From IMG/VR virus record IMGVR_UViG_3300044614_002617, positions 32,001 through 96,000 of that record: a stretch of DNA of 64,000 nucleotides. The stretch is one strand, 5' to 3'. Made by a program: the position numbers and the translations under genes. The notes below the pieces were generated by a model. That model made no database searches, was not told where the DNA came from, and worked only from the letters and a program-made list of their open reading frames with translations. Shown one piece after another: positions 4,312 through 57,734 of this stretch. The DNA is from a virus. Within the stretch, counting starts at the first letter, position 1, and each line of letters opens with the position of its first letter.

Positions 4312-6309
4312 ATGTCAGATGATAAGAAAATTACTATCAAAATAGCAGATGGCGTAAGTCCAGACGAAAATATTAACGTCAACTCTATTGACGACGTAAC
4401 TGGAATTATTAAGCAACGTCTTGGGCGCACAATGCTGTCTAAGTCCGATGTTCAAAAAATCAACGAAGAAGAGTTTAAGAAGCGCAAATACAAACAATCT
4501 AAAGTCAAGTTTGGTTCACGTTTTAATACTCGTATTGGCGTAGGCGACTCTCTTTCAAAAGAACCTAAGCGCCTCTCAGACGCTGAGCTCAAAGAACTTT
4601 CTCTTATCGACCCCTATATTGGGGCAATCATCAATACCCGCGTTGCCCAGATTTCCAGCTTCGGCGCTCGGTCTGAGTCTAAGTTTGACAAGGGTGTTCG
4701 CGTTATTGATTTAGAAGAAATTCGCCGCGAAGATTTTGATAACGAAGAAGCCTTCGAGCGTGAACTCAAGCTCCGCGAAGCAGAAAAGAAAGCTATTCTT
4801 GAGTGGGTATTAAAGTGCGGAACTTCTGACAAAAAAGTTCTTGACGAAATGTACGAGGCCGCCGATCCTACCTTTAAACACTGTTCGCTGAAAGATTACT
4901 TTCAGGCTCAAACTCGCGCCCTGTTGACATTTGGTCGCAGCGCTCGCCAGAACCTTTTGAACGCTGATGGGACTATCTGTGCCTTCAGGCCAACTCCGAT
5001 TGAGACTATTAAGCAAGTCAAGTTTGGTTCTAAGGTTCACGTAACGGCAGTCTCTGATATCGCGCAGCAGTCAGAGGCGGACGCCGCTGAATACAACAAG
5101 ATTCCTGTCAACGAAAAGCCCATTGCCTACGTTCAAGAGGTAGATGGCGTTCAGACTGGCTTTTTTACAGAAGAAGACCTGAAAGTTGTTTACTACCAAG
5201 TCCAGTCATTCCTCGACCTCAATGGTTATCCTATGGGGCCGATTGAGTTCGCTTTGTTTTTGGTTTATATCCATCAGCACACCCTCAGCTACCTTCGTAA
5301 TCAGTTTGTTAAAGGACAGCTCTCTAAGAGTATGATTGTGGTCAGGCCCACCGACCCATCAGTCAAAATCTCCGACGAAGATATTGAGTCTTTTAAAATG
5401 GAGATTCAAAACCTAGCGACAAGAACAGACAATAGTTCTGTTATTCCGGTTATTGGCGGCCCCGTTGAGCTTGAGCTCATCAAGACAACGGAAACTCCAA
5501 AAGACATGGAATGGATGCAAGTTGAACAGACTGTTATTCGTGCGTTATGCTCCGCTTTCCAAATCTCCCCTACAGAAGCTGGCTTTGGGCAGCTTGGCGA
5601 CACCGCAGGTATGGGTCAAGGCAGTCGTGACTACGAACTCGTTCAGGGTGAAGAGCGCGGCCTCAGGCTCCTTGTAGATATCTTAATGGAAGATGTCAAC
5701 GATGCTGTTTATCAAAACTTCCCAGAAGCTAAAAAACGCTACAGGGTTGCGGCGTTTGGTATTGGTAATGAAACACGCGAAGGTGTAATTCAGCGCCAAT
5801 CTCAAGAACTACAAACAACAGCGACTCTAAATTCGCTGTTCAGTGATTCTGACAAAAATCGTCAATTTGAGTTCGGCGGCGATGTTCCCTTAGCTCCTCT
5901 GTTTCATCAGAATGTGGCTCGATACATGACTTATGGAAAGTTTATGGAGGCGTATTTTGGAATGGAAGGTGCCTCTAAGCGTCCAGAGCTAGACTTTATT
6001 ATCGACCCTAGTCTTAACCAAGCTTATCAGCAACTTAAGATGGGTATGCAGCAGATGCAGGCTCAGCAGCAAGCGCTCGGGCTGGAAGGTCAAAAAATGC
6101 AGCTCGAGGCACAGCAAGCTCAGATGCAACAAGCGGCTCAGGGCGAGCAGCAAGCTCAACAGAGCCAACCACAGCCACAACCAGAAGAGCAGCAAAAGTC
6201 AGAAGACGTTGAGCTTCAAAAGGCATGGGAAGAATCCATGAAGGCTAATCACGAAAGTCTGTTAAAATCATGGCTTAGAGTTCATGACTCGAAGATTGAT
6301 GAAGAGTGA
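4312..6309 (+). CDS. Phage portal protein
   Basis: YPMGPIE, FVKG, KDMEW, ICSAF-like RALCSAFQISPTEAG, GLR.L pattern of HK97-family portals; Gln-rich C-terminal tail. Confidence 0.8.
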   Translation: MSDDKKITIKIADGVSPDENINVNSIDDVTGIIKQRLGRTMLSKSDVQKINEEEFKKRKYKQSKVKFGSRFNTRIGVGDSLSKEPKRLSDAELKELSLIDPYIGAIINTRVAQISSFGARSESKFDKGVRVIDLEEIRREDFDNEEAFERELKLREAEKKAILEWVLKCGTSDKKVLDEMYEAADPTFKHCSLKDYFQAQTRALLTFGRSARQNLLNADGTICAFRPTPIETIKQVKFGSKVHVTAVSDIAQQSEADAAEYNKIPVNEKPIAYVQEVDGVQTGFFTEEDLKVVYYQVQSFLDLNGYPMGPIEFALFLVYIHQHTLSYLRNQFVKGQLSKSMIVVRPTDPSVKISDEDIESFKMEIQNLATRTDNSSVIPVIGGPVELELIKTTETPKDMEWMQVEQTVIRALCSAFQISPTEAGFGQLGDTAGMGQGSRDYELVQGEERGLRLLVDILMEDVNDAVYQNFPEAKKRYRVAAFGIGNETREGVIQRQSQELQTTATLNSLFSDSDKNRQFEFGGDVPLAPLFHQNVARYMTYGKFMEAYFGMEGASKRPELDFIIDPSLNQAYQQLKMGMQQMQAQQQALGLEGQKMQLEAQQAQMQQAAQGEQQAQQSQPQPQPEEQQKSEDVELQKAWEESMKANHESLLKSWLRVHDSKIDEE

Positions 6310-6310
6310 T

Positions 6311-6338
6311 TAAAGTTTGTTTTTATGTGTTCCGATAG
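6311..6338 (+). promoter_or_regulatory. sigma28/FliA-type promoter
   Basis: TAAAGTTT...TCCGATAG, 16-nt spacer after TAAA; upstream of GGAGG and ATG 6359. Confidence 0.7.
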
Positions 6339-6358
6339 TTAATGTGGAGGTACCTGTT

Positions 6359-6888: not shown

Positions 6889-6890
6889 TT

Positions 6891-10926: not shown

Positions 10927-10947
10927 ATAAAACAAAGGGGGGTAGTT

Positions 10948-12105: not shown

Positions 12106-12298
12106 AGCGATTGAAAAACTAAAGTCGAGTAACCCAAGCGATCGCGAAGATGGGGTATGGGTTCTCTATGTGAACTCATTACATTGTTATAAAACCTTAA
12201 AATATCACGCGGAGCGCGAAGCAGACTGGAAACTAAAAGACTTACTAAATAAAATGCTAAGCGATTTTAGGATTTTGCATGAAAAAGAAAACAGTTAA
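12092..12298 (+). CDS. Hypothetical protein
   Basis: Overlapping ORF in operon. Confidence 0.5.
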   Translation: MKTHEAIEKLKSSNPSDREDGVWVLYVNSLHCYKTLKYHAEREADWKLKDLLNKMLSDFRILHEKENS

Positions 12299-13415
12299 AA
12301 ATATTAAACCAGTTTTAAAAACAATACAACATCTCAAGTTTATTAAGCAACTTGAGAAAAACGGCAATTTAGCTTACCAAATAGTCGCTGACAGGATGAT
12401 TGATGATATTGTAAGTTATCTTAAGTCAGAAAAGCTCGCTAAAGCCGAAGACTCTCACAATATTCCAAAAAATTGGACAAAGCTAGTTCCTCGTATTCAA
12501 ATCAATGTAAACAATACACTTGGTCCAATTATTGAAAAATATATGCTTGCTCTTAAGTATGCGCTATTGGGTAAGGCCGCCGGGCAAGATGCCGAAAATG
12601 CCGTTGAAGAGCTAGGACTAAAAACATATTTACCAAAAGGGCTGCTGTTTCAAGGTTTTTTTGACGCGGTGGACACTCAGTCCGATTACTTTTCCAAGGC
12701 TCTAAAGTTACCTAAAATCAAGACAGATGCATCTAAAGATCCTTTTATCGAGTATACTTTTAGGTTCATCAAAGAAAAGACGGCAAGACATCTCGATAAA
12801 ACGCTTGTCGAAATGAAGACCAAAGCCTTAACCGCAATTGAACAGGTTATCACAGAACACAACCATGAAAATACCTCAAATGTTCATCGGGTTGCCAACC
12901 AACTTGCATCTGAGCTAACAGAAACGAAGAAAAAACGCGAAGCCGTTCATGATGCTGTCAAAGCGGTTGCTGAGCATAAGCTCAGTTTGACCAAAGCAAA
13001 GCAGACCCTTAAAGATACTTTTAAAGACTATTCAACAAACTGGGACTTGGTTGTTAGAACCGAGGTAGGCATGGCATCGGCCACAGCAACAAGCCAAGCA
13101 ATCATGAATTTAGCCGGCTCTAAAGACAAGGATGTAATTGTTACTATCGTTTCGATTGAAGACGATAGGGTGTCTGAAGAGTGTAAGAATTGGTCAAGAA
13201 ACGACGACGGCTCTCTGAAATACTTTAGGCTTACATCTTTAAGGCCAGCAGGCTATAATTTGGGAAAAAAGAAAGCACAATGGGAAAACTGTCAACCACT
13301 GCGCCATTTTAGATGTCGTTGTACTTTGGTATACGTTCCAAGGGGTTACAAAGTGGATAGCTTTGGTTCGTTGGTAAAATTAGCCGAGGGCGAAGAAATT
13401 AAACTAGAGCGTTAA
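12279..13415 (+). CDS. MuF/SPP1 gp7-like minor head morphogenesis protein
   Basis: W.LVVRTE..., D.RV...C, PLRHFRCRCTL (HPxCRC-like) C-terminal motif. Confidence 0.7.
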   Translation: MKKKTVKNIKPVLKTIQHLKFIKQLEKNGNLAYQIVADRMIDDIVSYLKSEKLAKAEDSHNIPKNWTKLVPRIQINVNNTLGPIIEKYMLALKYALLGKAAGQDAENAVEELGLKTYLPKGLLFQGFFDAVDTQSDYFSKALKLPKIKTDASKDPFIEYTFRFIKEKTARHLDKTLVEMKTKALTAIEQVITEHNHENTSNVHRVANQLASELTETKKKREAVHDAVKAVAEHKLSLTKAKQTLKDTFKDYSTNWDLVVRTEVGMASATATSQAIMNLAGSKDKDVIVTIVSIEDDRVSEECKNWSRNDDGSLKYFRLTSLRPAGYNLGKKKAQWENCQPLRHFRCRCTLVYVPRGYKVDSFGSLVKLAEGEEIKLER

Positions 13416-16754: not shown

Positions 16755-17537
16755 ATGGGACTAAAAGTCTTTGGATTGGGTGCAGTACAATCAGTCGATA
16801 AACAAGGCGAACTGATTGAAATTGCTAATATTGATACATCCAATCTACGTATGATTACAGACGAGCATAATTCTGACCAAAAGGGAGCTTGGTGTATTGT
16901 TGGCGGGATTACTGCCCACAAAAAGATTATGTCTGAAAAAGACTGCGAAACTCCCCGTCAAAAGAAGTGCTGGGACTTGGTAAAAGTTCCATATCTTTAT
17001 GTTGAAGGAGAACTCGCCGATGGACACCCTAACGCTGACGCCGCTGCTGCTCTTATCCGGTACACTGCTGCTAATCCTGATATTCCCCTAAAGATCGGTA
17101 TGTCAATTGAAGGGCTTATCTTGAAACGCGGTGGCCCAGAGGGCTCTGCCGAGCATAAAGTCATCAAGCAATCTTCTGCGGACGCTATCGCTATTACGGC
17201 CAAACCCTGTAATCCACAGGCCCAAATGTTTCCAATGAACGATCTTATGAAATCTTCGATTGAGCCTCCCCCTGCAGAATATCTACAGAAGTTCATGAAG
17301 TCCGAAGGGGCTACCGAGTCGTTTAAACACCGCCCAGAAATTCGTCTTCAGCAGAAGCTCCAAGAGTTGAAAAAATCTTTGGAAGATGTTTTAAAAGGTG
17401 GTACATGCTCTGTTAAGTGCTGGAACTGTGGTGACACTGAGCGCATGTTCAAAGCATCGAGAGAGTGGAGCAATCGTTGCAAAAAATGCGGAGATGCTCG
17501 TAGTATGAAAGACATCTGGAACGCTTTAAACCAATAA
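16755..17537 (+). CDS. Prohead (capsid maturation) protease with C-terminal Zn ribbon
   Basis: VDKQGELI, DEH, LYVEGEL, GMSIEG, AITAKPCNP (HK97/U35-type); CWNC...CKKC. Confidence 0.75.
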   Translation: MGLKVFGLGAVQSVDKQGELIEIANIDTSNLRMITDEHNSDQKGAWCIVGGITAHKKIMSEKDCETPRQKKCWDLVKVPYLYVEGELADGHPNADAAAALIRYTAANPDIPLKIGMSIEGLILKRGGPEGSAEHKVIKQSSADAIAITAKPCNPQAQMFPMNDLMKSSIEPPPAEYLQKFMKSEGATESFKHRPEIRLQQKLQELKKSLEDVLKGGTCSVKCWNCGDTERMFKASREWSNRCKKCGDARSMKDIWNALNQ

Positions 17538-17546
17538 GAGGATGAT

Positions 17547-17924
17547 ATGCCAAACATTTTTTCTGACAATGGTGTAGCTGGACTAAAGCTAGATTACGGC
17601 GAAGCAACAAAAGCCGCTTTGGCTGCAGCCACGGAGCTTGCCCCGGTAATGTTGATTACGTTGGCAGATCAGTCTCATAAAATTATTTTCCATAATGATT
17701 CTGACCAAGAAGTGCAAGTTTTGATTGCAAACCCATCTAGCTTGGAAGGAGCTTGGCAAAAACTACTTTGTCTTGCTCCCGGGCAAAGTTTGCCAATTGA
17801 AAACTATGCTGGGCCTATGTGCCTATTTCCGCCTCGCACTAAATTTGCAGCATATTCTCTTGGATCGCATGTTGGAATCGCCGATCCGGAAGGCAAGTGC
17901 AGAGTTTACGCTTGGTTGGCGTAA
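17547..17924 (+). CDS. Hypothetical virion protein
   Basis: Follows protease, GAGG RBS. Confidence 0.5.
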   Translation: MPNIFSDNGVAGLKLDYGEATKAALAAATELAPVMLITLADQSHKIIFHNDSDQEVQVLIANPSSLEGAWQKLLCLAPGQSLPIENYAGPMCLFPPRTKFAAYSLGSHVGIADPEGKCRVYAWLA

Positions 17925-17930
17925 ATAATT

Positions 17931-17956
17931 AAGGGGAGCTATGCTCCCCTTTTTTT
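17931..17956 (+). terminator. Intrinsic terminator between convergent genes
   Basis: AAGGGGAGC-tat-GCTCCCCTT followed by T run. Confidence 0.85.
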
Positions 17957-18506
17957 ATTTCTTGCCCAGTCTTGCTACTTCTTGAACTATCACATCAAAG
18001 ACAGAAGTGCTTCTCTCGTCAGCCATCTCAAGTAGTCGCTTCAGAAGAAGCTCAAGGGTTTTATTAGCTATTTGTTTATCGTAATCAGCCTGAGCAGCCC
18101 CATGAACAATAATGCGATAATCACCCGTCGTAGCAACATCCTGGGTTTTATCTTTTAGAACCTTTGAAAGAACTTCTGGCTTTTTTGACCTCGCTTTTGA
18201 TGGGGTTTTCTTAGAAGAATTATTAAGAACAAACACATCTGGCTTGGGTGTAGGCTTAGCAACGGATGCCTTCTTGGATTTATTTTTTGATTTCTTGGAG
18301 GCAAACTCAGCCCTTAGTGCACTCAAGATTGGCAGCTCTTCAGAGGCGTTTTCTTTGTTTTCTTCTTGGTTAAGTGCCTGCTTAGCCTCCTCAAGAGAGG
18401 AAAACCGTCCCAAGTAGATCCTCTTGGAGTCACGAACGACTCTGACAAGATATTTACGTTCAGTTGCGCTGTAAGAAATACCCTTAATTCCAATTTTCAT
18501 AATCAT
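17955..18506 (-). CDS. AP2-domain DNA-binding protein
   Basis: KGISY...KY..RV......IYLGRFSSLEEA; Lys-rich linker; no HNH domain. Confidence 0.7.
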   Translation of the reverse strand: MIMKIGIKGISYSATERKYLVRVVRDSKRIYLGRFSSLEEAKQALNQEENKENASEELPILSALRAEFASKKSKNKSKKASVAKPTPKPDVFVLNNSSKKTPSKARSKKPEVLSKVLKDKTQDVATTGDYRIIVHGAAQADYDKQIANKTLELLLKRLLEMADERSTSVFDVIVQEVARLGKK

Positions 18507-18766
18507 TCTCCCTCTTTAACAAATCTTTTGGTTACTGCACACCACTCTCCAAACATTCCATCGCGAGCAAAACGCCTATTGTCTTCAGCGGGATCGCCCA
18601 CATGAAGATGAGCAAGCCCTAGTTCATCCAATCTATGAACAGCCAAATTGAACATAGATGGCGCGTAGGTGCTACGCTCGTCGGCGTATCTTTGAGCCAT
18701 CCACATGGTATCTTCAATAATCTGTTTTAGTTTTTCATTTTCTTCCTTTAATTTTTTCATCGTCAC
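18503..18766 (-). CDS. Hypothetical protein
   Basis: GGAGG RBS; WMAQRYA..R.TYAP motif. Confidence 0.6.
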   Translation of the reverse strand: MTMKKLKEENEKLKQIIEDTMWMAQRYADERSTYAPSMFNLAVHRLDELGLAHLHVGDPAEDNRRFARDGMFGEWCAVTKRFVKEGE

Positions 18767-18854
18767 AGGACACCTCCCTTTCGCTGATAGTTAGCAGCAG
18801 CATCAAAGAAGATACCAAAACAGTCCCAAAAATTGCAAGAAGAATATTTTGCAT
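18735..18854 (-). CDS. 39-aa membrane peptide (not in ORF track)
   Basis: MQNILLAIFGTVLVSSLMLLLTISEREV...; GGGGGG RBS; follows sigma28-type promoter. Confidence 0.55.
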   Translation of the reverse strand: MQNILLAIFGTVLVSSLMLLLTISEREVSCDDEKIKGRK

Positions 18855-18875
18855 AACTTACCCCCCATATCCTTC

Positions 18876-18902
18876 TATTCGGAAATTGCTTGAAAAACTT
18901 TA
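18876..18902 (-). promoter_or_regulatory. sigma28/FliA-type promoter
   Basis: TAAAGTTT...TCCGAATA with 15-nt spacer on minus strand. Confidence 0.65.
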
Positions 18903-18918
18903 GCCGTTATTGTAAAAT
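18890..18918 (+). promoter_or_regulatory. sigma70-type promoter of the fibre operon
   Basis: TTGAAA-N17-TAAAAT; overlaps the divergent sigma28-type site. Confidence 0.6.
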
Positions 18919-18959
18919 AAGCCTATATTGTTGCACCCAAAATTCCCTAAGAGGGCAAA

Positions 18960-42608: not shown

Positions 42609-45600
42609 ATGACGGTCAACTTAAGAATTAAGAAAAAGAACATTGACGATAATGCGATTGACGGTACAAAAATTCAACTTCTTCAAAATGAATCGGTAAA
42701 AGCCGTTGACTCTTCTGGACAAGTCGTTGACCTTGTTAAGTTAGATGCAAACGGAAATGTTTTAGGTAACGGCCACGAATTGGCTAAAAAAGCAGATCTT
42801 ATTCAAGAAGCTTCTAGTCGGGTTGCAGGCGACAACTCCTTGGATGCTCGTCTAGATATTCTTGAAGGCGACGCACAGACAGTCGGTTCCGTTCAAAAAG
42901 CTCTTAAAGACGGAAAAGACTATACAGACGAGCAGCTACTAAACGAAAAAACCGCTCGCATTAATGCTGATAACGTATTGCAACAAAACATTGATACGGA
43001 AACTTTGGCCAGAATCGACGCAGACCGAGAAGAGCAGTCTGCTCGTATTGCTGCAGATAATCTAGAAAAGTCTCAAAGAGAAGCTGCAGATGTGGAGCTT
43101 CGAGGGCTGATTGATGATGAAGTTGCTGCAAGAATTTCGGGAGACTCTTCCTTAACCCAAAGACTAAACTCTTTGGAAGCCGATGAAAACACAGACGGAT
43201 CTCTCTTAAAAATTTTTAAAGATGCCAAAACATATACAGACACAAAAGTAAACATTGAAATCACCTCCAGAAGGGCTGCCGACAACTCTCTCGATGCTCG
43301 TCTAGATGTTGTTCAGGGAGATAGTGGCACTCCGGGCTCTATTGCTAAGGCGCAGTGGGATGCCGAAAGATACGCTGACAGCGAAGTTGCTGCCGAAAGG
43401 GCACTTCGTGAAGACGGAGACTCCGACCTATACTCTAAAATTGAACTCGAAGTGACAAGCTTGTATGCAGCCATAAATTCAGCGCAGCACAGTTTGGGCA
43501 CACGAATCACAGATGAGACAAATCAAAGAGTCAACGGAGACAACTCCCTTGATGCCCGCCTAGACGTAGTCCAAGGCGATGAAAATACTGCGGGTTCTAT
43601 CTCTAAGGCTTTAAAAGATGCTAAGGCTTACACAGACCAAAAGGCTCTTGATGCCGACGCTAATCTAATTAACGCAATTAACACCGAAACAACGCTGCGT
43701 ATTGCTTCAGATAATTCTCTCGATGCTCGTCTAGACGTAGTTCAAGGCAATGAGAATACTGCGGGCTCTGTTCTTAAATCGCTTAAAGACGCTAAGGAAT
43801 ATACAGACGGTCAGGTTGCTGTTGAAAAAACAAGAGCAATGACCGCAGAAGCCAGCCTAAATACCAAGATTGAGTTCTTTAAAGACAACGCAGATCCGGC
43901 GGCAATCGACTCCCTTAAGGAAATTGTAACTGCATTCCAAGCTGCGGACAATAACCTTAATAATGCTATTAGTAATATCTCTGTAAACGTAACTGCTGAA
44001 CTTAATGCAGAAATTACTTCTAGAAGGGCTGCCGACACCAGTCTGGACTCTAAGATTACGGCCACCGTTTCTGTAGAAGCTTCAATTAGAGCTTTGTCTG
44101 ATACTAATTTAGGCTCTCGAATCGACACCGAAATAACTAATCGCACAAATGGCGACAATAGTTTGGGCACACGAATTACGGACGAAACAAACCAAAGAGT
44201 CGCTGGAGATAATTCCCTAACTACACGTCTAAATGTAGTTCAAGGCGATGAAAATACTGCGGGTTCTATCTCTAAGGCTTTAAAAGACGCTAAAGCATAC
44301 ACAGACCAAAAGGCTCTCGACGCTGATGCCAACCTGCTTAATGCGATTAATGCAGAGGTTACCTCTAGGCAGGCTGCCGTTAGTTCGGAGGCTACATCTA
44401 GAGCCAACGGAGACAACTCTCTTGATGCGCGTCTAGATGTAGTTCAGGGAGATGGTACCCCGGGATCCATCTCTAAAGCTCAGTATGATGCTGAAAGGTA
44501 CGCTGATCACGTTGTTGCTATCGAAAAAACAAGAGCTATTACTGCAGAAAATAGCCTCCACTATCGTTTAAATTTCTTTGAAGAAAACACAGATAGCGCT
44601 AAACTTGATTCTCTAAAAGAAATTGTAGACGCTTTCCAGTCTGCAGACGGTAACCTTAATAATGCCATTAGCAATATTTCCGTAAACGTAACTGCTGAAC
44701 TTAATGCAGAAATCACCTCCAGAAGGGCTGCCGAGTCATCCCTCGACGAAAGATTGGACATTGTTCAAGGAGATAGTGGCACTCCGGGCTCTATTGCTAA
44801 GGCGCAGTGGGATGCCGAAAGATACGCTGACAGCGAAGTTGCCCATGAGCGCATCAGGGCAGAAACCGCCGAGGCGTCACTAAGAAATGCGGTCAATGAC
44901 GAAGCCAGCGCTAGGCTATCGGGAGACGCGGATTTAAGTTCTAGAATCAGCGTACTTGAAGGCGATTATCTAACTACCGGCTCTATTGCCAATATGTTGG
45001 CTCAAGCAAAAGAGTATACAGATCAAGAGATTGACAAAGAAGAGTCGGCTCGAATCGCTGATGTTAATGCGGAAGAGTCTGCACGTATTCAAGCAATTAA
45101 TACAGAAGCGACTGCCCGAGCGGACGGCGATGATCAGTTGGCTAGTCTTATTCAGGCTGAAACGAATAACCGTGTGTCAGCTATTAATACTGAAAGAAAT
45201 TCAAGAACTTCTGCCGTCAACCAACTTAATAGTAAAATTGACACAGAGACAAACAGTCGTCAAACAGCTGTAATTAGTCTTGAAAATGCTTTGGAAGACG
45301 AAACGACTTATCGCATTGAAAGCGATTCTGAGTTGCAAAGTCAAATAGACGATCTTTTAACCCGAGTAGGGGCGGTCGAAATTACGGCTGCTGAGGGTGG
45401 CTCTACTTTTGATTTGCAAGAAAAAACAGAAAGAATTGCGGCTGACTCTTCGTTAGAGGCGGCGATTTCTGCCGAAGTTACCTCAAGGCAACAGGCAATC
45501 GCTGATTTGGTTGGCGCGGCGCCGGCTCTTTTAGACACCCTAAAAGAATTGTCCGATGCTTTGGGTCAAGACGCTAACTTTGCAACAACTATTACAAATA

Positions 45601-45965
45601 GATTTAACGCAATTGAATCTAGCTTAACTATCGCCACTCAGGATGGAGTAATATATACAAATCAAAAACATGAAGAAATACTAAGTCTTATTTCTAACAC
45701 GTTGTTAAAGCAAGAATCTTTTGTTCTTGATGAAGAAGATGTTGCAAACGGGTATGTAGAGTGGCCAGAAACTGGAATTATCTTAAGATCCATTAATGCG
45801 TTTGCCGACCGTTTGTGTATTTTTGAAGGAACTGACTATTCCCTAACTGTAACGAATGGCATAGCTCGGCTTACATTCTTAAATAGTCTTACTGGCAACG
45901 GAGCAGAAGCGGTAGAGGAGGGTGATTCAATCAGGATCACTTATTGGAAAACTCCAACTACTTAA
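42609..45965 (+). CDS. Long repetitive coiled-coil fibre protein
   Basis: Repeated E..R...DNSLDARLDVVQG...GSI.KA..DA..Y.D units; shared N- and C-terminal domains. Confidence 0.7.
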   Translation: MTVNLRIKKKNIDDNAIDGTKIQLLQNESVKAVDSSGQVVDLVKLDANGNVLGNGHELAKKADLIQEASSRVAGDNSLDARLDILEGDAQTVGSVQKALKDGKDYTDEQLLNEKTARINADNVLQQNIDTETLARIDADREEQSARIAADNLEKSQREAADVELRGLIDDEVAARISGDSSLTQRLNSLEADENTDGSLLKIFKDAKTYTDTKVNIEITSRRAADNSLDARLDVVQGDSGTPGSIAKAQWDAERYADSEVAAERALREDGDSDLYSKIELEVTSLYAAINSAQHSLGTRITDETNQRVNGDNSLDARLDVVQGDENTAGSISKALKDAKAYTDQKALDADANLINAINTETTLRIASDNSLDARLDVVQGNENTAGSVLKSLKDAKEYTDGQVAVEKTRAMTAEASLNTKIEFFKDNADPAAIDSLKEIVTAFQAADNNLNNAISNISVNVTAELNAEITSRRAADTSLDSKITATVSVEASIRALSDTNLGSRIDTEITNRTNGDNSLGTRITDETNQRVAGDNSLTTRLNVVQGDENTAGSISKALKDAKAYTDQKALDADANLLNAINAEVTSRQAAVSSEATSRANGDNSLDARLDVVQGDGTPGSISKAQYDAERYADHVVAIEKTRAITAENSLHYRLNFFEENTDSAKLDSLKEIVDAFQSADGNLNNAISNISVNVTAELNAEITSRRAAESSLDERLDIVQGDSGTPGSIAKAQWDAERYADSEVAHERIRAETAEASLRNAVNDEASARLSGDADLSSRISVLEGDYLTTGSIANMLAQAKEYTDQEIDKEESARIADVNAEESARIQAINTEATARADGDDQLASLIQAETNNRVSAINTERNSRTSAVNQLNSKIDTETNSRQTAVISLENALEDETTYRIESDSELQSQIDDLLTRVGAVEITAAEGGSTFDLQEKTERIAADSSLEAAISAEVTSRQQAIADLVGAAPALLDTLKELSDALGQDANFATTITNRFNAIESSLTIATQDGVIYTNQKHEEILSLISNTLLKQESFVLDEEDVANGYVEWPETGIILRSINAFADRLCIFEGTDYSLTVTNGIARLTFLNSLTGNGAEAVEEGDSIRITYWKTPTT

Positions 45966-50036: not shown

Positions 50037-52268
50037 ATGAGCGGAAATACAACCACACCAATAGCAATGTCTGGCTATATTACCCCTGCCTATACCTTTA
50101 CTCCCGGTGTAGCCGGTGTGGGTACTATCAATCTCTCAGGGATTAATGGGTTTGACATCAAACGCCTCGTTGCAATTATCAATCAAACAGCCGGCGTGGT
50201 TATCTATTCATCCGCAAACTCTTCGTATAATTACACAAATGTAGTTGGAACTACAATAACACTCAAAGCCGACACAAGTGATCAAAATTCTACAGATATT
50301 TTGCAAGTTGTATACGACACAGGATATGTCGTTTTAGATCCAACCTTCCCAATCAATATTGACAGTGTTTATGTTTCTAATGAGGTCGAAGTTAAAAATG
50401 ATGCAGGCAACCCTATTCCTGTTACAGGTGCTCTTACAGATGCCCAGCTTCGTGCAACCCCTGTTCCAGTATCTATTTCGTCTTCAATCGAACTAGAAGT
50501 TAAAAACGATTCTGGAAATCCTTTGCCCATCTCAGGTGCAGTTAGCGCAACACAATCAGGTACTTGGAACATCAATGACGTTTCAGGAACAATTAGCCTG
50601 CCCACCGGAGCAGCAACTGCCGCTAAGCAAGACAGTCAATCAACGCAACTAACAGCCATCAAAGCTGCAATTGATGCCTTGTCGATTAATGCTTCAGCTC
50701 CTCAAGATATCTTGGGAGTTGGCGTTATGGGGTCGAGAAACAATCAGGTTGAAATTAATTTTGAGACAGCCCCCGGAAATACATTAATTACCGAAACTTT
50801 CACAGGCGGCGGTCTTGTAACAATTACGAATGGTCATTCTATTTATGCAACGGGAGCGGCGGCTACTGCCTCCGCAAAAGTAGTCACTGTTCAAAATGTT
50901 GTTTATCGCCCTGCGCATGAAATTTACAGCTATTTTACGGCTGCGTTCACTACGGGTGTTGCAAATACTTTTCAGCGAATTGGTATTTTTAATGACACAA
51001 ATGGTTTTTATATTGGATATGAAAATAATTTATTTGGAATTACTAAAAGAACTTCTGGGGCTAATACATTTGTTGCAAGAAGTTCGTGGAATGGTGACCC
51101 GCTGGATGGCAGCGGCACTTCTAGATTTACTCGCGGAGGCATTCCAGAGGCAATTAATCTAAACTACAGCAATCTTTTTAGAATTAGATTCGCTTGGCTA
51201 GGGTCTGGTCCCGTTGTATTTGAAGTGTTTAGTCCAGATGGTTTTTGGGTTGCTTTTCATACATTTAGGATACCAAATAGCTCATATGACCCATCAATCG
51301 CAAATCCAGATTTACCACTGAGCTTGCATATTTCTAAAAATGCGGCAAACGGTACAAATATTGCTGTTGCCACAGCTTGTTGGGCAGGCGGAACGACATC
51401 GGACTACGTTAAGATTAGCGATACCTTAACAACCAATACATTGGCATCTTTGACTCGCTCTGTTATTACAGGACAGACAACCGCAGGAGGCGGTGGGTTT
51501 GTTAATGTTAAAGTAAACCCATCGGGAGCACTAAACGTAGCGGCCACTCAAGACAGTGCGTGGAATATTACTAATATTACAGGCACAGTCAGCCTACCTA
51601 CAGGTGCAGCTACCTTAGCTGCACAAAATACCGGCAACGCAAGTCTAAGCAGTATTGACGGCAAAACCCCTGTGTTGGGGCAAGCAGCAATGGCCGGTTC
51701 TACTCCGGTCGTTATTGCCTCCAATCAATCGAACGTGCCCGTTGCGGTTCAAGACACATGGAAGGCAACTTATACAGCAGGTGCTACAAATTACACACCT
51801 TACGCAAATGCAACGGATATTTTGACAATTAGCGGCAGTGCAAATAAAGTCATCAGAATCTATAAAATTCATATTTCTGCAATAGCAACAGGAAATAATA
51901 CACATTATGATTTATTTTTAATTAAACGCTCTACAGCAAATACGGGCGGAACGCCAACAGCCATAACGCCCGTTGCCCACGACTCTTTAAATCCAACACC
52001 TACAGCGGTTGTAACTCGATACGCAAGCTTGCCGACATTGGGCACAACGGTTGGAACAATTAATCAAAGTGATTTGTTTGCGAGCACAAACAGCAAAGGT
52101 GCCGACAACCCCGTACAGCCCGGAAATGTTTTGCAAATTAATTTTGGTACACACCACAATCTTCAGCCCCTTACATTAAGGGGTGCGAATGAAGTATTGG
52201 CTATTAATTTGGGCGGCATTACTGTTGCGGCTAACTTAGAAATCGATATTGAGTGGACGGAAGAATAA
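50037..52268 (+). CDS. Virion structural protein with fibre-like linkers and a beta-sandwich domain
   Basis: EVKND.GNP.P and SLPTGAAT repeats; RIG.F...NGF, F.WLG.G.V.F pattern. Confidence 0.6.
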   Translation: MSGNTTTPIAMSGYITPAYTFTPGVAGVGTINLSGINGFDIKRLVAIINQTAGVVIYSSANSSYNYTNVVGTTITLKADTSDQNSTDILQVVYDTGYVVLDPTFPINIDSVYVSNEVEVKNDAGNPIPVTGALTDAQLRATPVPVSISSSIELEVKNDSGNPLPISGAVSATQSGTWNINDVSGTISLPTGAATAAKQDSQSTQLTAIKAAIDALSINASAPQDILGVGVMGSRNNQVEINFETAPGNTLITETFTGGGLVTITNGHSIYATGAAATASAKVVTVQNVVYRPAHEIYSYFTAAFTTGVANTFQRIGIFNDTNGFYIGYENNLFGITKRTSGANTFVARSSWNGDPLDGSGTSRFTRGGIPEAINLNYSNLFRIRFAWLGSGPVVFEVFSPDGFWVAFHTFRIPNSSYDPSIANPDLPLSLHISKNAANGTNIAVATACWAGGTTSDYVKISDTLTTNTLASLTRSVITGQTTAGGGGFVNVKVNPSGALNVAATQDSAWNITNITGTVSLPTGAATLAAQNTGNASLSSIDGKTPVLGQAAMAGSTPVVIASNQSNVPVAVQDTWKATYTAGATNYTPYANATDILTISGSANKVIRIYKIHISAIATGNNTHYDLFLIKRSTANTGGTPTAITPVAHDSLNPTPTAVVTRYASLPTLGTTVGTINQSDLFASTNSKGADNPVQPGNVLQINFGTHHNLQPLTLRGANEVLAINLGGITVAANLEIDIEWTEE

Positions 52269-52276
52269 CCTCTTAA

Positions 52277-52305
52277 TTGCCAAACATCCCAAAACGCGGT
52301 AAAAT
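52277..52305 (+). promoter_or_regulatory. sigma70-type promoter inside a 10-bp inverted repeat
   Basis: TTGCCA-N17-TAAAAT; GCCAAACATC/GATGTTTGGC arms. Confidence 0.65.
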
Positions 52306-52336
52306 GCTAGATGTTTGGCGTCTTTAGGGAGTTATC

Positions 52337-53047
52337 ATGCAAAGTCTTAAGTCTTTACAAAAACAGCTTGAAAAGTTGCAGAAAGCAGAAAAATGCAGTA
52401 AAGACAATAATTTAAATAAAAAAGCTCTTTTAAAAAAATCTCTTAAGTCTTTGTTAGCTGAATACGAAAAGCTCAAAAAAGCTGAATATCTTAATAATAC
52501 ATATTATCCAGATCATGTTGACGCTGCTCGTAAAAAAGAACATCCTACTAAAAAACACCTAATTGGCCATTATGCTAAAAATGGCGAACCTACTTGGACT
52601 TATAACAAACATCTTGCATACGAGCAGGATGAAGGTCTTAAAAAGCTTATTGATGGTAAGCAAATATCTAAAGATGGTAAGCTTTTACCAAACAAATTAA
52701 ATTCCCTGTCTCAAGAAAATATTCAACTGCTAAGAGAGCATACACTGAGCACTCTATTAAAAGATCCCGATAGGCATGTTATGGCCGCAAACACAGACCC
52801 CTCAAAACCCAAAGACCATGCAGAAGTCAGAGTTAGACACCTTATTAATGCCTTGACAGGCTCTGATGGGTATGAGTTAAAAGATAGTCCTATGGGTGGC
52901 TTTGAAATTTATGCTCCGAGACATTCTGGCTCTGATAAGGCACAAGACATTGCAACTCGTTGGACTTTTCACCCTAATAAAAAAAGATTTAGGTCTGAAA
53001 GAATCTATCCGATAAGTGTGAGCGGAGGGGATGGCGATGGAAAATAA
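52337..53047 (+). CDS. Putative internal head protein with LxK[S/A]-rich leader
   Basis: LQKAE, LKKS and LKKAE within the first 50 aa. Confidence 0.55.
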   Translation: MQSLKSLQKQLEKLQKAEKCSKDNNLNKKALLKKSLKSLLAEYEKLKKAEYLNNTYYPDHVDAARKKEHPTKKHLIGHYAKNGEPTWTYNKHLAYEQDEGLKKLIDGKQISKDGKLLPNKLNSLSQENIQLLREHTLSTLLKDPDRHVMAANTDPSKPKDHAEVRVRHLINALTGSDGYELKDSPMGGFEIYAPRHSGSDKAQDIATRWTFHPNKKRFRSERIYPISVSGGDGDGK

Positions 53048-53219
53048 ACAAATAAGTCATGAAGAGCTGATTGCTCGCGGCTTAGATCCAGACCTTGGCA
53101 GACTTATTGAAGAAGCTGAGCCAATGAGAATAGACAGAATTGGTTGGCTTGAGAGTAAGATAATTAGTATGTCTCTTTTTGTAAAGATATGGGCAGTAAA
53201 GATTCGGAGATTTTTTTAA
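53031..53219 (+). CDS. Small hypothetical protein
   Basis: GGAGG RBS. Confidence 0.5.
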   Translation: MAMENKQISHEELIARGLDPDLGRLIEEAEPMRIDRIGWLESKIISMSLFVKIWAVKIRRFF

Positions 53220-53980
53220 TGTCAAATGATAAAAAAGAGCATCAAAACAAAAAATCTTTCAAAGCAACGCCCGCTGTACTGCAGGCATTACGGGCCATAA
53301 AGACAGCTATTTTAGAAAAAAGACCCGTTGTCCTCAACAAAACAAGAGGCACACTCAAATTTCCTAAAATCCTCCCCAAAGACACACGCCCAGAAGAAAA
53401 CGTCAAGCAAATTCCTAAAAACGAGCCTCATCAAGAAATGAAACCCCATGGTCTATGGGACGTACAACCTGCTAAACAACAATTCATTCAAGCAGCACTG
53501 ACCGGAGTCCCTCCTGAACAAAGATACAGAGGCGCTCAGCAAATTCAAGAAGCAATTCAAGGTGGTATGCTCGGAGCCTACACTCACAAAACCAAACAAG
53601 CTTTTGCTCTTGAGCCTGACTTTGCCGTCAAAGGACACGAAGCCATTCATGCCATGGTAGACAAGGCGGCTACTCATTTTGGGGTAGATGAAAAACAAGT
53701 CTACGAGCATCTTAATAGCTTAATCCATCCAGAAGACAAAGAAATCTTGGCCCATACCCTTAAGACTACCGGCTATCCCTCTCACGTTCACTATTCTGAA
53801 ATGGTGCCTTGGATTCATACCATCTTGCACAACAAGCCAGCTAGAGAATATTTCTTTAATTCTTTAAAGTTTTATAAGAATAACGTCGATGAGACAAAAC
53901 AGAGGCAGGCGGTTCAGCGTCTTGGTAGGACATGGAACGCTATTGTAAAAATGGGTAAAGAGCTAGACAAGTTACCATGA
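53219..53980 (+). CDS. HExxH zincin-like protein (putative internal head protein)
   Basis: GHEAIH followed by a downstream SE; start at 53219 with GGAG RBS. Confidence 0.55.
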   Translation: MSNDKKEHQNKKSFKATPAVLQALRAIKTAILEKRPVVLNKTRGTLKFPKILPKDTRPEENVKQIPKNEPHQEMKPHGLWDVQPAKQQFIQAALTGVPPEQRYRGAQQIQEAIQGGMLGAYTHKTKQAFALEPDFAVKGHEAIHAMVDKAATHFGVDEKQVYEHLNSLIHPEDKEILAHTLKTTGYPSHVHYSEMVPWIHTILHNKPAREYFFNSLKFYKNNVDETKQRQAVQRLGRTWNAIVKMGKELDKLP

Positions 53981-53987
53981 GGAAGTT

Positions 53988-54389
53988 ATGAGTACATTAA
54001 AGCGCGGCTATTTGAACTGCGCAACATATAAAAATAATTACACTTTTTATATTGGAGAAGGGTTCTTACAAGATTCTTTTTTACATCTTGCTGTAAACCC
54101 AAATCCTAGCCTATTGTTTGCTGAGATGTTGACTGAATGCAAATGGACTCCTTACAAGTCTTATGTTGAGATGTTGGTAACAATTAAAGAATTGCCGTCA
54201 AATAAAAATATTCTTAATGATTTCAACAAAATGACTACTGATTGTTATTTGAGGCACACGGTTGGTGACCAAGAATCTGTCTATCTACTCAAAAACAATG
54301 AGCTATTTTGTACAGAAGACTTACAAAAGCCAATCAAGTTAAATGAATTGATGTTTTTAGACGGCAAGTGGACAATTGTAAAATCATGA
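53988..54389 (+). CDS. Hypothetical protein
   Basis: GAGG RBS. Confidence 0.5.
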   Translation: MSTLKRGYLNCATYKNNYTFYIGEGFLQDSFLHLAVNPNPSLLFAEMLTECKWTPYKSYVEMLVTIKELPSNKNILNDFNKMTTDCYLRHTVGDQESVYLLKNNELFCTEDLQKPIKLNELMFLDGKWTIVKS

Positions 54390-54411
54390 TATTTGACTGA
54401 AAGGCGTCGTT

Positions 54412-57072
54412 GTGAAAACACTCAAAGACCTAACAGATAGAATTGCTGCAGAACACGGCTTGGAGTGGTACCAACCCCTTAATAAAGCTGAAGATTCTGC
54501 TGGCATGACAGCTATTCACTTGGGTAACGGTTATTCACTGCACCATGAGCATTCTGAAAACGGCCATGACATTTGGGCTGTTGGGTTTAATGGCGAGCGT
54601 GCTGGCACCTTCATGTTAAGAACAGAAGACACTCGCAGAGGCAAGCCAATGGTGGCTTGGGCTGGCTTAGAGAAGCCACATAGAGGTAAAGGAATTGGAA
54701 CTCTTGCCTATAAAGCGTTAGCTGTTCATTACGGGGGGCTAGACTCAGATAAAGCATCGTCATCCGATGAAGCTGTTAAGGCTTGGATAAGGGCTGGCGG
54801 GCGTCAAATGAAGATAAAAAGTCAATTTGGCAAGCCTCGATATACTTTGGATGGGGATAAAAAGAATCTACCTATTAAATGGAATGAAGATTTGATTAAG
54901 GGCTTTAAAAGCCAGTGGGGTGGCACTCTTCCCGACACAGACAATTCGCACGTCGAAAGAAATGAATGGTGGCACGGAACTCCATCGGGAAGATTTCCTC
55001 TTAATAATATTCACGTGGGCAGCAAGAAAGCCGCTCATGAAGCCTTAACCGCAACAATAGGGCATCCTGTTGAGGGCGAGTGGGATGGTACTAGAGAATA
55101 CGGAAAGACCTTACTGGCTGGCAAAAAAACCTTGGAAGCTAGAGGGATTTCTATTACCGGCTATTCAGCAGACGCTCCGCTTGAAGACCACTATCCCACG
55201 GGTAAAGCCAAGTATTCCGACGGAACACAAGTTTCTTCGTCGGAAAAACCTAATATGCTAAGATTCAAGATAAAAGGCAAAATGACCAGCCATCCGCATA
55301 CGCCGAGAACAGATATGGCCGCAAATGCAATAATGAAAAGAAAAGGTATAAAACAAGGAATTTATTATGTAAACGAGGGGGAAGACCCTGGCTCAATTAG
55401 CGCCGTTGTTCCTTCGGTAGAGCATTTAGAACAAATTAATAATTCTATTAAAAAATCCTCTGACCTTAACTCTCTCATCCAACAAGCCAAAACCCGTTTA
55501 GAAGGCGTCAAAAAGGTTGGCTCTCAAGAGTCACGCCCTATGATATTTGCCAACAAAGACGAAACAAAACATGGGTTTGTAACTGTAGACCCTTCTAAAA
55601 AAGGCCAATGGCGCGTCACTCATTTCGTCAAAGGCAAGCCCGCAGGTCATTCAGAAGCACCTACATTTAGCGATGCCATCAAAGTAGCTCATGAGTCAGG
55701 CTATAACGTCTTTAAAGAAATTCCTGAAGAGCAACTCTTTAAAGCAGAGTCTCTTGTTAAGGCTGCTCATCCGTCGGACCTTAAAAAGATGGTTAACAAA
55801 ACAAACCACGATGCTAAAGAAATTGTAGACGCCGCTCCTCATGCTGTTCACGCACCTGACCAAGAATATGTTAATTTTTTAAATGACCCAAAAGTTCAAA
55901 AAGGACTAGGAAGTAAAGACGTTGGTGGAATTTCAGCCAAGATGGTGCATAAAGTAGGCGATGAAACTTACATGGCTAAGCCTTACTATAAAAAAGTTGA
56001 GTCAGCTGCACGAGCAATAAATCCGCATCCGATTTCTGGTTGGGCTTCTATAGCTACTAAAAATCTTTATAATGCTGCAAATATTGGGCATTTATGTGAA
56101 GATGTATCTTTTCACGAGCATAACGGTATTCCCATGACTGTTCATAAGTTTGCCAAAAATGCTCATGAAGTTGGTGATCCTGGTTATGAGTATACCTTTC
56201 AAAACAGAATTAAAAATCCTAACATTGAAGCTCAAGGTAAAAAAATAGCAATTATGGATTTTTTAACAAATAATTTAGACCGCCATACCTCAAATATTAT
56301 GTTTCATCCAAATGAAAAAAAAACCGACCATAATCTTCTTGCTATTGACCACGAAAGAAGCTTTCAGTATAATAAAGGATGGGGCATCTTAGAGCCCCGT
56401 TATGCCGTTAACGAAAGACCTCGATCTTATTTCAATCATTCACTAGGGCTTAAGCCTTTTTCAATAAGTGACGAAACCGACTTACCTGAGCATCAAACAA
56501 CAAAGGCGTGGTGGCGAGCAAATAAAGATAATATATCAAATTCTTTTAATAAAGATATAGAAAGCATTAAAGACCCTTATCTTAAAAATCACATTAAAAC
56601 TAACTTTACAAAAAGATGGGAATGGCTTAATGAGCATTCTAATCCAGACCATTTTGATTTTTTTGATGCTGCCAATATCCCTGTTGAAATGACTAAGGAA
56701 CGTCTTCCAAAAACCGATTATCAAGCAATTATAAAAAACTTGCCTGATAATCCTTATAAGGCACTCGGCGTTATTGATGGTCTTTTTGCCAAAAAGCTAT
56801 CTTTTGCCACAAAAGAAACTTTGGTAGATCTTTGGGACCAACAAGTTGATAAGATGTCTGGAGAAGAAGTTGGTAACTATCTTAAGGATATTGAAAAAAC
56901 AAAAAATCATCCTCACCCCAAAGGCGCTTACGGGTCCTTAATGAACAGATTGGTTCAGGAAAATCATCAACAGGGAATACAGCATTTAGTACAAAATAAC
57001 ATAATAGATTCGCCATATTGGAAAGAAAAGTTTAAAGCAGTACTAAGATTAGGGGCACCAAAAAAACCATGA
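54412..57072 (+). CDS. Polyvalent protein: GNAT-like + ADP-ribosyltransferase-like + unknown + PI3/4K/HipA-like kinase domains
   Basis: GLEKPHRGKGIGTLAY; WHGT...HVGS..AA...YYVNEGED..S.S.VV; MAKP...DFLTNNLDRHTSNIM...AIDHERSF. Confidence 0.7.
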   Translation: MKTLKDLTDRIAAEHGLEWYQPLNKAEDSAGMTAIHLGNGYSLHHEHSENGHDIWAVGFNGERAGTFMLRTEDTRRGKPMVAWAGLEKPHRGKGIGTLAYKALAVHYGGLDSDKASSSDEAVKAWIRAGGRQMKIKSQFGKPRYTLDGDKKNLPIKWNEDLIKGFKSQWGGTLPDTDNSHVERNEWWHGTPSGRFPLNNIHVGSKKAAHEALTATIGHPVEGEWDGTREYGKTLLAGKKTLEARGISITGYSADAPLEDHYPTGKAKYSDGTQVSSSEKPNMLRFKIKGKMTSHPHTPRTDMAANAIMKRKGIKQGIYYVNEGEDPGSISAVVPSVEHLEQINNSIKKSSDLNSLIQQAKTRLEGVKKVGSQESRPMIFANKDETKHGFVTVDPSKKGQWRVTHFVKGKPAGHSEAPTFSDAIKVAHESGYNVFKEIPEEQLFKAESLVKAAHPSDLKKMVNKTNHDAKEIVDAAPHAVHAPDQEYVNFLNDPKVQKGLGSKDVGGISAKMVHKVGDETYMAKPYYKKVESAARAINPHPISGWASIATKNLYNAANIGHLCEDVSFHEHNGIPMTVHKFAKNAHEVGDPGYEYTFQNRIKNPNIEAQGKKIAIMDFLTNNLDRHTSNIMFHPNEKKTDHNLLAIDHERSFQYNKGWGILEPRYAVNERPRSYFNHSLGLKPFSISDETDLPEHQTTKAWWRANKDNISNSFNKDIESIKDPYLKNHIKTNFTKRWEWLNEHSNPDHFDFFDAANIPVEMTKERLPKTDYQAIIKNLPDNPYKALGVIDGLFAKKLSFATKETLVDLWDQQVDKMSGEEVGNYLKDIEKTKNHPHPKGAYGSLMNRLVQENHQQGIQHLVQNNIIDSPYWKEKFKAVLRLGAPKKP

Positions 57073-57734
57073 TTCTTCACATTAAGAGCCACGTGACTAG
57101 CTTTGAGTACTCAATTCCTGCAACTTATGAAGGAATTAAAAGCCTTTTTGATATGTTTCCTTTTGTAGAACAAATAGTTGCACACCATCATAATTTAAAT
57201 CAGGCTCTCGAAGAGATTGTCGAGTATCTTAGCTCTCACCATATGGATGCTTGGTTGTCAGCAGAAGCACCTCTTAAAAAATCAGAAGACAAAACCCGCG
57301 TAGCCTCTATTGTTGTCTGCAGTGGCGACAGGATGTTGATGCTTCAACGTAGAGATAACGACAAGTGGACATTCCCCGGTGGCCATTTGAACAACGGCGA
57401 GTCGTTTATTGACGGTGCTGTAAGAGAGTTGTTTGAAGAGGCAGGCATCAGAGCAAACCCAGATGAACTTATTCTTATGGGCGACAAACAGACTTTCCAA
57501 GGCAAGACTATCCATGTCTACCTATATAAAGTCAATAGCGAAATAGCAACTACAGCATCGAACGATCCAGACAAAGAAGCCAAACAATTCAAGTGGTTGC
57601 CACATATTTTACCAGAAGAAATTAAAGAAAACCTCTACATTCCTGTAGGAGACAACGCTTCTTTGAGTATGTTTATGAAGTATCTCTTAAGTCAGAAGAT
57701 TCAGGAGCTTAAAAGCAAAATAAATAAAGATTAA
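57069..57734 (+). CDS. Nudix hydrolase with N-terminal extension
   Basis: Complete Nudix box GHLNNGESFIDGAVRELFEEAGI; PLKKSED at the domain start. Confidence 0.9.
   Translation: MILHIKSHVTSFEYSIPATYEGIKSLFDMFPFVEQIVAHHHNLNQALEEIVEYLSSHHMDAWLSAEAPLKKSEDKTRVASIVVCSGDRMLMLQRRDNDKWTFPGGHLNNGESFIDGAVRELFEEAGIRANPDELILMGDKQTFQGKTIHVYLYKVNSEIATTASNDPDKEAKQFKWLPHILPEEIKENLYIPVGDNASLSMFMKYLLSQKIQELKSKINKD

Follow-up and report, generated by a model that had tools for sequence, protein, structure and literature searches.

The question raised by the 64,000-nucleotide stretch of viral DNA analysed here (the window; bases 32001-96000 of the 110,367-bp IMG/VR record IMGVR_UViG_3300044614_002617) is why one short motif, a hydrophobic residue followed by any residue, lysine and then serine or alanine, should recur in its portal protein, in other head proteins and in several products of a late gene cluster. 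According to the original prediction, the prohead protease encoded at 16755-17537 recognises the motif, cleavage follows the lysine, and the motif could predict the capsid cargo genome-wide. The analysis favours the first two of these claims, at a probability of about 0.65: L-x-K↓S/A, in which the arrow marks the predicted scissile bond between positions P1 and P1', would be the substrate signal of a prohead protease of the assemblin/T4-gp21 type. The evidence that carries this reading is comparative throughout and consists of the N-termini of capsid proteins in relatives, the ranking of scaffold proteins by motif content, the restriction of P1 to lysine, a conserved site just past the protease domain and the coincidence of the motif with module borders.

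The record is ~67% complete and belongs to a divergent myovirus-type phage. Its portal gene (4312-6309) encodes a protein with 24% identity to the portal of Myxococcus phage Mx1 over 72% of its length, its other matches being Herelleviridae portals, and a large terminase gene with 30% identity to that of Mx1 lies just upstream of the window. Scans of 50 open reading frames (ORFs) against PHROG and Pfam found neither a capsid nor a terminase gene in the window, and PF05065 was likewise without a match. The incomplete record lacks the capsid and scaffold genes; they are located in the part carried by a complete 162,747-bp relative, G001, whose capsid gene was located by means of the Mx1 capsid protein and whose protease is 99% identical to that of the window. 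Besides the record itself, five genomes of 160-177 kb were retrieved for independent tests. Relatives of the protease were found at 110 IMG/VR loci, and a profile search for the family, with clustering at 50% identity, gave 1249 clusters, of which 770 had E below 1e-10. Among 50,697 isolate genomes the only match was the 'putative prohead protease' of Mx1, at 37% identity.

The protease (260 aa; plus strand, as are all the genes given by coordinates as head or cargo genes here) matches PHROG 1028, head maturation protease, at E 7.6e-7. It consists of a catalytic domain (aa 1-160), a flexible linker (161-200), a helix (195-214) and a C-terminal zinc ribbon with four cysteines. An AlphaFold2 (AF2) model had a predicted local distance difference test score (pLDDT) of 80.8 overall and ~90 for the domain at aa 1-160. 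Its best structural match in VIA-align was T4 gp21 (5jbl_A; Z 9.4, rmsd 2.9, 121 aa) and the next ~30 matches were all herpesvirus proteases with Z of 6-9. The top Foldseek matches were also all herpesvirus proteases, the best being that of Epstein-Barr virus (E 1.2e-3, prob 1.00). Three residues, H38, H91 and S117, are invariant together with the four cysteines in 15 homologues of 33-88% identity; the catalytic residues of T4 gp21 include H85 and S140, and the three residues named here were singled out by conservation and not by superposition on gp21. The modelled fold identifies the product as an assemblin/T4-gp21-type protease, for which activity on head proteins is predicted. The gene order in G003, G005, G006, SP-10 and SPO1L5 is portal, protease, scaffold-position gene, capsid; the protease gene of the window stands apart, flanked by minus-strand genes.

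All of the motif strings cited in the original prediction were found in the translated ORFs of the genes named. Motif counts were compared with 1000 shuffles of each protein that kept its composition. For [LIFM]xK[SA] the whole 110-kb record gave 88 matches where 72.7 were expected (p 0.04). The enrichment predicted for seven head or cargo proteins was found, with 20 matches against 7.88 (2.5-fold, Poisson p 2e-4), while all the remaining proteins stood at expectation (68 against 64.8), the excess being confined to the head/cargo set. These seven proteins had been chosen post hoc by the earlier reader and two non-head proteins were among those ranked at the top, a lysozyme at 60104-60691 (4 against 0.84 expected) and a tail-fibre protein at 42609-45965 (1118 aa), all of whose matches fall inside a repeated GS[IV]xKA[LQ]KDAK unit. 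The idea was therefore tested on genomes that were new to that reader.

Blind ranking of every protein by motif excess gave first place to the neighbour of the capsid gene in G003 (8 against 0.76), G005 (7 against 1.09) and G006 (7 against 0.99), and to an acidic scaffold-like protein in G001 (7 against 0.78). Proteases were ranked second to fourth in G001, G002 and G005. A scan of all 20 residues at each position revealed enrichment only of Lys at P1, of Ser and then Ala at P1' and of Leu/Met at P3. When the lysine of the pattern was replaced by each residue in turn, [LIFM]xX[SA] was enriched in the scaffolds for X = K only, with 35 matches against 4.5 (p 7e-20), and Ser at P1' accounted for 28 against 1.9. 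The same scan gave 19 against 6.6 in proteases and 14 against 7.6 in portals, and a ratio of 1.19 in the rest of the five proteomes. The C-terminal extensions of 115 proteases of the family held 420 matches against 138.8 expected, with no other P1 residue above 1.15-fold. In the proposed consensus Lys stands at P1, preceded by Leu/Met at P3 with P2 free, and followed at P1' by Ser/Ala or, more rarely, Gly/Thr; P5 is often Glu, and P2'-P3' are often Glu/Asp.

A check of the N-terminus of the major capsid protein was proposed together with the original prediction, and in the loci retrieved from relatives 36 of 36 distinct N-termini read [LIFMV]xK↓[SAGT]xx[AS]G. The capsid protein of G001 has a 25-residue leader ending in ERMAK↓SFNAIG, and across nine capsid proteins of ~23% identity E21 (P5), K25 (P1) and A29 (P4') are invariant. 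The Mx1 protein reads LRK↓AMEAG. A profile of the nine proteins matched SPO1 Gp6.1 (9vel_C, E 7.5e-76), which has LNK↓ALEAG at the corresponding place, and further matched the phi812 capsid protein (5lii_P, E 1.3e-28) and 9row_B (E 3.7e-26). In an SPO1-like phage LNK↓ALEAG at the capsid N-terminus is accompanied by 10 sites in the scaffold-position gene against 0.70 expected, and by sites past the protease domain. The capsid proteins of A511 and K-type phages lose ~20 N-terminal residues. No mature N-terminus of a capsid protein of SPO1, A511 or Mx1 type, nor any L-x-K rule, was found in the literature, which is no proof of absence.

The portal (665 aa), recognised by its identity to the Mx1 portal and by PHROG and Pfam portal matches, has LSK↓S at aa 42-45 (4435-4446), which predicts a propeptide of ~44 residues. 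This L-x-K↓[SAG] site occupies a single alignment column across six lineages, G002, G005, G006 and Mx1 included, within an N-terminal region that is otherwise unconserved. The sites near its C-terminus, QQK↓SED (aa 627), LQK↓A (635-638) and LLK↓S (650-653), at 6190-6270, are weaker evidence, being kept only in the 95%-identical portal of G001; the Mx1 tail has one ISK↓S. A Gln-rich low-complexity stretch ahead of these C-terminal sites (aa 580-630, window 6050-6200) also occurs in G002, G003 and Mx1. A MuF-like minor head protein (378 aa, 12279-13415), assigned from weak PHROG matches to minor head protein (E 2.3e-4) and to the portal-MuF part (E 4.6e-5), contains 4 sites against 1.33 expected; that at aa 53-58 (12435-12452), LAK↓AED, is kept in G001 as LAK↓AED, and no homologue more distant than that of G001 was found.

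The protease itself carries a predicted self-cleavage site, LMK↓S, directly after its catalytic domain (aa 164-167, 17244-17255). Among the 15 homologues S167 does not vary and K166 is kept in at least 90%, and the site falls in a segment (165-170) of pLDDT below 50 which is presumably flexible. Every one of 49 distinct relatives of the protease has [LIFMV]xK[SAGT] 8-24 residues past the end of the domain, mostly at +12 or +13, and such a post-domain site was present in 92 of 121 representatives at 50% identity where 25% were expected to have one. Two more stand in the tail at 17292-17378, FMK↓S at aa 180-183 and LKK↓S at aa 205-208; L205 and K207 are invariant and 'ALKKS' occurs near aa 180 in most homologues.

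Coincidence of the motif with module borders is seen in the late cluster at 50037-57734, which lies on the late strand behind the tail-fibre genes and begins with a gene for a 'virion structural protein' (PHROG 1645, E 5.6e-27). The part from 52337 to 57734 is rearranged in G001, where its modules recur in different polypeptides. The gene at 54412-57072 encodes a polyprotein of 886 aa, judged as such by Pfam and by the recurrence of its modules in relatives, in which a 22-aa leader is followed by four modules, the first GNAT-like (aa 26-163), the second unassigned (164-348), the third small (349-450) and the last PI3/4-kinase-like (451-886). Pfam gave 28.2 bits for PI3_PI4_kinase, the cut-off being 27.1, and 19.7 bits for GNAT, under its cut-off, and the assignment of functions to the modules is loose. 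An 'ART-like' label for aa 164-345 was rejected, since it had no Pfam or PDB sequence support, one relative's record carrying PF18760. The sites are LNK↓A at aa 23 (54478-54489), LIK↓G at 161 (54892-54903), IKK↓S at 346 (55447-55458), LFK↓A at 442 (55735-55746) and LVK↓A at 448 (55753-55764). Ends of the alignments between window and G001 fall on the motif: aa 23-163 (LNK↓AED...NEDLIK↓) corresponds to aa 277-417 of a G001 protein, and aa 346-450 recurs there in an alignment that begins at IKK↓SSD.

A search with the GNAT-like module recovered 17 proteins of 531-1529 aa in which modules stand in differing orders and PF00454, PF00293, PF00583 and PF18760 are found in varying combinations. The use of BLAST end-points as automatic breakpoints in these 17 polyproteins was tried and placed 60% within 5 aa of L-x-K against 29% at random, but the end-points were fuzzy, and junctions were therefore defined solely by where the downstream module starts, as marked by its conserved initial residues. 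The 32 different junctions so obtained have Lys at P1 in 100% and Leu at P3 in 94%, with A, S, T, N or G at P1', regardless of the module upstream. Residues on the P side go with the module that precedes the junction and those on the P' side with the module that follows it, as would be expected if the modules were mature polypeptides bounded by scissile bonds.

Similar borders are found in two neighbouring genes. The 263-aa cargo candidate at 53189-53980, with an HExxH (HEAIH) module, has LNK↓T at aa 49-52 (53333-53344) before the conserved module start TRGTL; in relatives the start TRGTLTFPK stands behind four different modules and has L-x-K ahead of it every time. The Nudix hydrolase at 57069-57734 (221 aa; Pfam NUDIX 62.9 bits, aa 76-179) has LKK↓SED at aa 69-74 (57273-57290), directly ahead of the Nudix fold. 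The module starts with MKK↓SED in a G001 polyprotein and with LQK↓SED and LKK↓SED in P0018 and P0023, where it is fused into the polyprotein, so that split and fused forms alternate; the distant Nudix proteins of G005 and G006 have LNK↓A and LKK↓A immediately ahead of the domain. In the window the Nudix ORF overlaps the stop codon of the polyprotein gene by 4 nt (ATGA, 57069-57072). A near-identical helix said to be shared by the protease and the Nudix C-terminus did not withstand comparison: it amounts to 7 of 11 identities, which 8% of random proteome 11-mers equal, and relatives do not keep the C-terminus of the Nudix protein.

Two types of leader occur. The 22-aa leader of the polyprotein is also found on nine other architectures, G001 included, and ends L[NQ]K↓AED. 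A further cargo candidate (236 aa, 52337-53047), the core of which is part of an 811-aa polyprotein in G001, has an N-terminal leader with LQK↓A (aa 14), LKK↓S (32) and LKK↓A (46). Within it a tag at aa 26-52 (52412-52492), LKK↓SLKSLLAEYEKLKK↓AE, encloses ~14 residues between its two sites; a 1340-aa protein of G001 holds three copies of this tag and the 811-aa protein one. The best other match of the tag profile was the N-terminus of the G001 scaffold-like protein, a resemblance suggesting that leaders may act as scaffold-mimicking loading signals.

Prediction of cargo genome-wide from the tetrapeptide alone, the third claim, fails. Chance produces about one match per 400 aa, the background ratio is 1.19, and the lysozyme and the tail-fibre repeat are false matches. 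Such prediction needs context, namely site density, an N-terminal leader or module-border position, or a repeated tag. An extended pattern, E.[LIFM].K[SAGT], was tried as a better predictor and rejected, being ~2-fold over shuffle throughout six genomes with replication enzymes included. The tail-fibre unit GS[IV]xKA[LQ]KDAK, present in eight copies in the 1118-aa tail-fibre-like protein and in two in a 1966-aa protein that runs into the window start (1-2456), inflates the number of motif matches and has nothing to do with the head signal. The lysozyme is of T4 type (Pfam 137 bits) and its G001 homologue has 3 motifs against 0.67; these matches are probably due to chance within a folded domain, and a lysozyme that is virion-associated and processed is conceivable.

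Several observations weigh against the motif being the substrate signal of the 16755 protease. The capsid and scaffold tests rest on relatives, the genes being lacking in the incomplete record. G002 has a protease 96% identical to that of the window, yet its capsid protein is only 43% identical to that of G001. The post-domain site is lacking at its expected place in about a quarter of the family representatives. The motif count of the 886-aa polyprotein taken alone is not significant (4 against 2.18), the evidence there being position and not density, and an AF2 model of it from a 17-row alignment had a mean pLDDT of 40.8 and gave no structural support for sites in linkers. The matches at portal aa 337, at aa 231 in the zinc ribbon of the protease and in the lysozyme are probably buried and uncut. 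To these must be added the HEAIH module of the 53189 protein, which lies in the same cluster as the joints and for which Atlas gave low-scoring leads to the polyvalent-protein domains LPD23/LPD1 and to metallopeptidase-like folds (M78, M48/MPTase-PolyVal and M76). It may be, then, that the prohead protease cuts the head proteins and that the zincin-like HExxH module, at 53189-53980 and in fused copies, cuts the polyprotein joints in cis or in trans. Iyer et al. (2017, PMC5512222) report that no domain is commoner in polyvalent proteins than the zincin-like peptidase, which they predict to release the other domains. This division of labour is nevertheless unlikely. The junction consensus, Leu at P3, Lys at P1 and Ala/Ser at P1', is identical to that of the capsid, scaffold, portal and protease sites, and SPO1-type head modules carry the motif, no HExxH module having been seen there. 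The 54412 polyprotein has no HExxH module and a Pfam search of the 53189 protein gave no peptidase family. The junctions share their code with the head proteins and the prohead protease is therefore the simpler account.

That the motif is not cut at all is less probable still. It might mark the end of a helix, after which come a Ser/Ala N-cap and an acidic capping box, or serve as a docking peptide in scaffold-like co-assembly, and the borders would reflect only recombination at a conserved linker. The S-x-x-E/D that follows the lysine resembles a helix-capping box, the tag resembles the scaffold N-terminal helix, and the twofold excess of E.[LIFM].K[SAGT] in all six genomes extends to replication enzymes. 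Helix capping, however, leaves unexplained why Lys is invariant at P1 and Leu nearly so at P3 of the 32 junctions, why only K is enriched among 20 residues, and why a site should be fixed 12 residues past the protease domain in a disordered linker. The places at which the motif occurs, namely the capsid and portal N-termini, the scaffold and the protease tail, are moreover those cut in SPN3US and T4. As for an effect of chance or composition in helical proteins rich in Lys, Leu and Ser, the statistics of the window alone are modest (per-protein p 0.006-0.05 for proteins chosen post hoc, with the lysozyme and the tail-fibre repeat scoring too). Composition was preserved in the shuffles, however, the excess is limited to head and cargo proteins, independent genomes gave p down to 1e-20 and the positional counts were 36/36 and 49/49; this explanation, the least credible of the three, is excluded.

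If the motif is indeed the signal of the prohead protease, the protease would act inside the procapsid, where it would remove N-terminal propeptides of ~25 aa from the capsid protein and ~44 aa from the portal, chop the scaffold into peptides and free itself from its own C-terminal tail at K166↓S167. It would cut the 52337, 53189, 54412, Nudix and MuF-like proteins at leaders and module joints, releasing separate enzymes that would stay in the head and probably be injected with the DNA. The excised leaders would probably mediate loading of the cargo, one of them being the ~14-residue amphipathic tag between two cut sites that resembles the scaffold N-terminal helix. What the comparisons show is the specificity of the motif, the conservation of its positions, its coincidence with module borders and the fold of the protease; cleavage, packaging and injection are proposed steps. 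A wider version, which is held at slightly less than even odds, is that one L-x-K↓S/A code is read by the whole protease lineage of at least 1,200 protein clusters, with enzyme modules (acetyltransferase-like, kinase-like, Nudix, HExxH and others) swapped between genomes exactly at the scissile bond, loaded through excisable, scaffold-mimicking leaders, cut apart in the procapsid and injected. The lineage meant consists of uncultured phages of 100-180 kb together with Mx1, and the code would also be used in SPO1-type head modules.

Observations on relatives of the protease add to the picture of its genes. In Mx1 (L023:13002-16721, 1239 aa) and in many members of the family (500-1266 aa; P0051-P0181) a long motif-rich protein has the protease as its N-terminal domain, and such proteins are read here as putative protease-anchored polyproteins. 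In other relatives the C-terminal part of the protease repeats the N-terminal stretch of the capsid protein, cut motif included (L126-L128, G005 60854-62041; G006 17385-19067; G003 98220-100199; L144:1403-2011 of SPO1L5), an example being LNK↓ALTAGYGGAG in the protease and LQK↓AISAGYGYAG in the capsid protein; the window protease has at the corresponding place its zinc ribbon with the four invariant cysteines (aa 222-245). The 169-kb genome of G002 (IMGVR_UViG_3300020204_000007) has two prohead-protease genes, at 164894-165676 and 89778-90539. One product is 96% identical to the window protease and is accompanied by a conserved 125-aa neighbour, which in the window lies at 17547-17924 and belongs to no known family; the genome's own protease is 34% identical, and its portal is only 39% identical to that of the window. 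Protease and neighbour seem, to judge from these comparisons, to move as a cassette. Between its capsid and portal genes G002 also encodes a lysozyme/chitinase-like protein (69435-70253, L110) that starts MQLKK↓SLKDL and ends with two repeats of INEALQK↓SLEE type, a candidate for a head-packaged wall hydrolase.

If the proposal is true, motif and context together would disclose which proteins are injected by a large phage lineage, nearly all of it uncultured. Among them would be enzymes of kinase-like, acetyltransferase-like and Nudix type, whose targets may be host defences during the first seconds of infection. The proposal would also yield testable predictions for the mature capsid N-termini of the cultured phages Mx1 and SPO1, and suggest a natural cassette of leader and cut site for loading foreign proteins into capsids. 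A cut after lysine is invisible to standard tryptic virion proteomics; processing of this kind readily escapes notice, and this may account for the lack of an earlier description.

Among known systems, the A-x-E sites cut by gp245 of SPN3US, which favour Ser at P1', lie in the capsid protein, in the portal, in ejection proteins and in the C-terminal tail of gp245 itself (PMC10052503). SPN3US gp245 and phiKZ gp175 resemble the protease described here in being of assemblin/gp21 type, in a three-residue motif with Ser at P1', and in acting, as is predicted here, on N-terminal propeptides, on their own tails and several times within a propeptide (PMC10052503). They differ in having Glu at P1 (A-x-E) where Lys (L-x-K) is found here, and cleavage has been measured there whereas here we infer it. 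Their substrates are single proteins with long propeptides, whereas those proposed here include beads-on-a-string polyproteins reshuffled at predicted cut sites, and the capsid lineage is of SPO1/Mx1 type, unlike that of SPN3US/phiKZ.

The T4 gp21 protease follows the cleavage rule L/I-x-E. T4 gp21 is the best structural match of the window protease, and in T4 short N-terminal leaders ending in the protease motif load head enzymes such as the ADP-ribosyltransferase Alt and are then removed (PMC5512222). The T4 system of IPI-III and Alt differs in that P1 is Glu, the cargo is encoded by separate small genes and not as reshuffled polyproteins, and the leaders are unrelated in sequence to the 22-aa leader and the two-site tag. 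Herelleviridae of SPO1 type have the capsid profile and L-x-K sites of the head module in common with the Mx1-like lineage; their hosts are Firmicutes and no cargo polyprotein cluster was seen in the stretches examined. The HK97-like Staphylococcus phage phi12 has a herpesvirus-like protease with K/R at P1, cutting CP at R128↓L129 and Ccm at K87↓Q88 (PMC8569155). It differs in that its authors found no wider consensus, a long delta domain is removed and there are no cargo proteins (PMC8569155).

Polyvalent proteins of phages and conjugative elements, as described by Iyer, Burroughs, Anand, de Souza and Aravind (2017, PMC5512222) in the sections that bear on this subject, are large, late multi-enzyme proteins encoded among virion genes, for which delivery together with the DNA was predicted and which were linked to MuF and to assemblin-like and zincin-like peptidases. 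The 54412 polyprotein and its relatives are multi-domain in the same sense. Release by embedded peptidases is proposed in those sections, which note neither a junction motif nor a general role of the prohead protease (PMC5512222), whereas the junctions described here have a code in common with head proteins. Processing of scaffold, portal, capsid and ejection proteins by a protease of gp21/assemblin type at a three-residue motif is already established in T4 and phiKZ/SPN3US, a basic P1 residue has been reported in phi12, and polyvalent cargo proteins have been described. What the sequences examined here would add is the L-x-K↓S/A specificity of the Mx1/SPO1-type lineage, its use as the exact point at which modules are exchanged, and the excisable tags.

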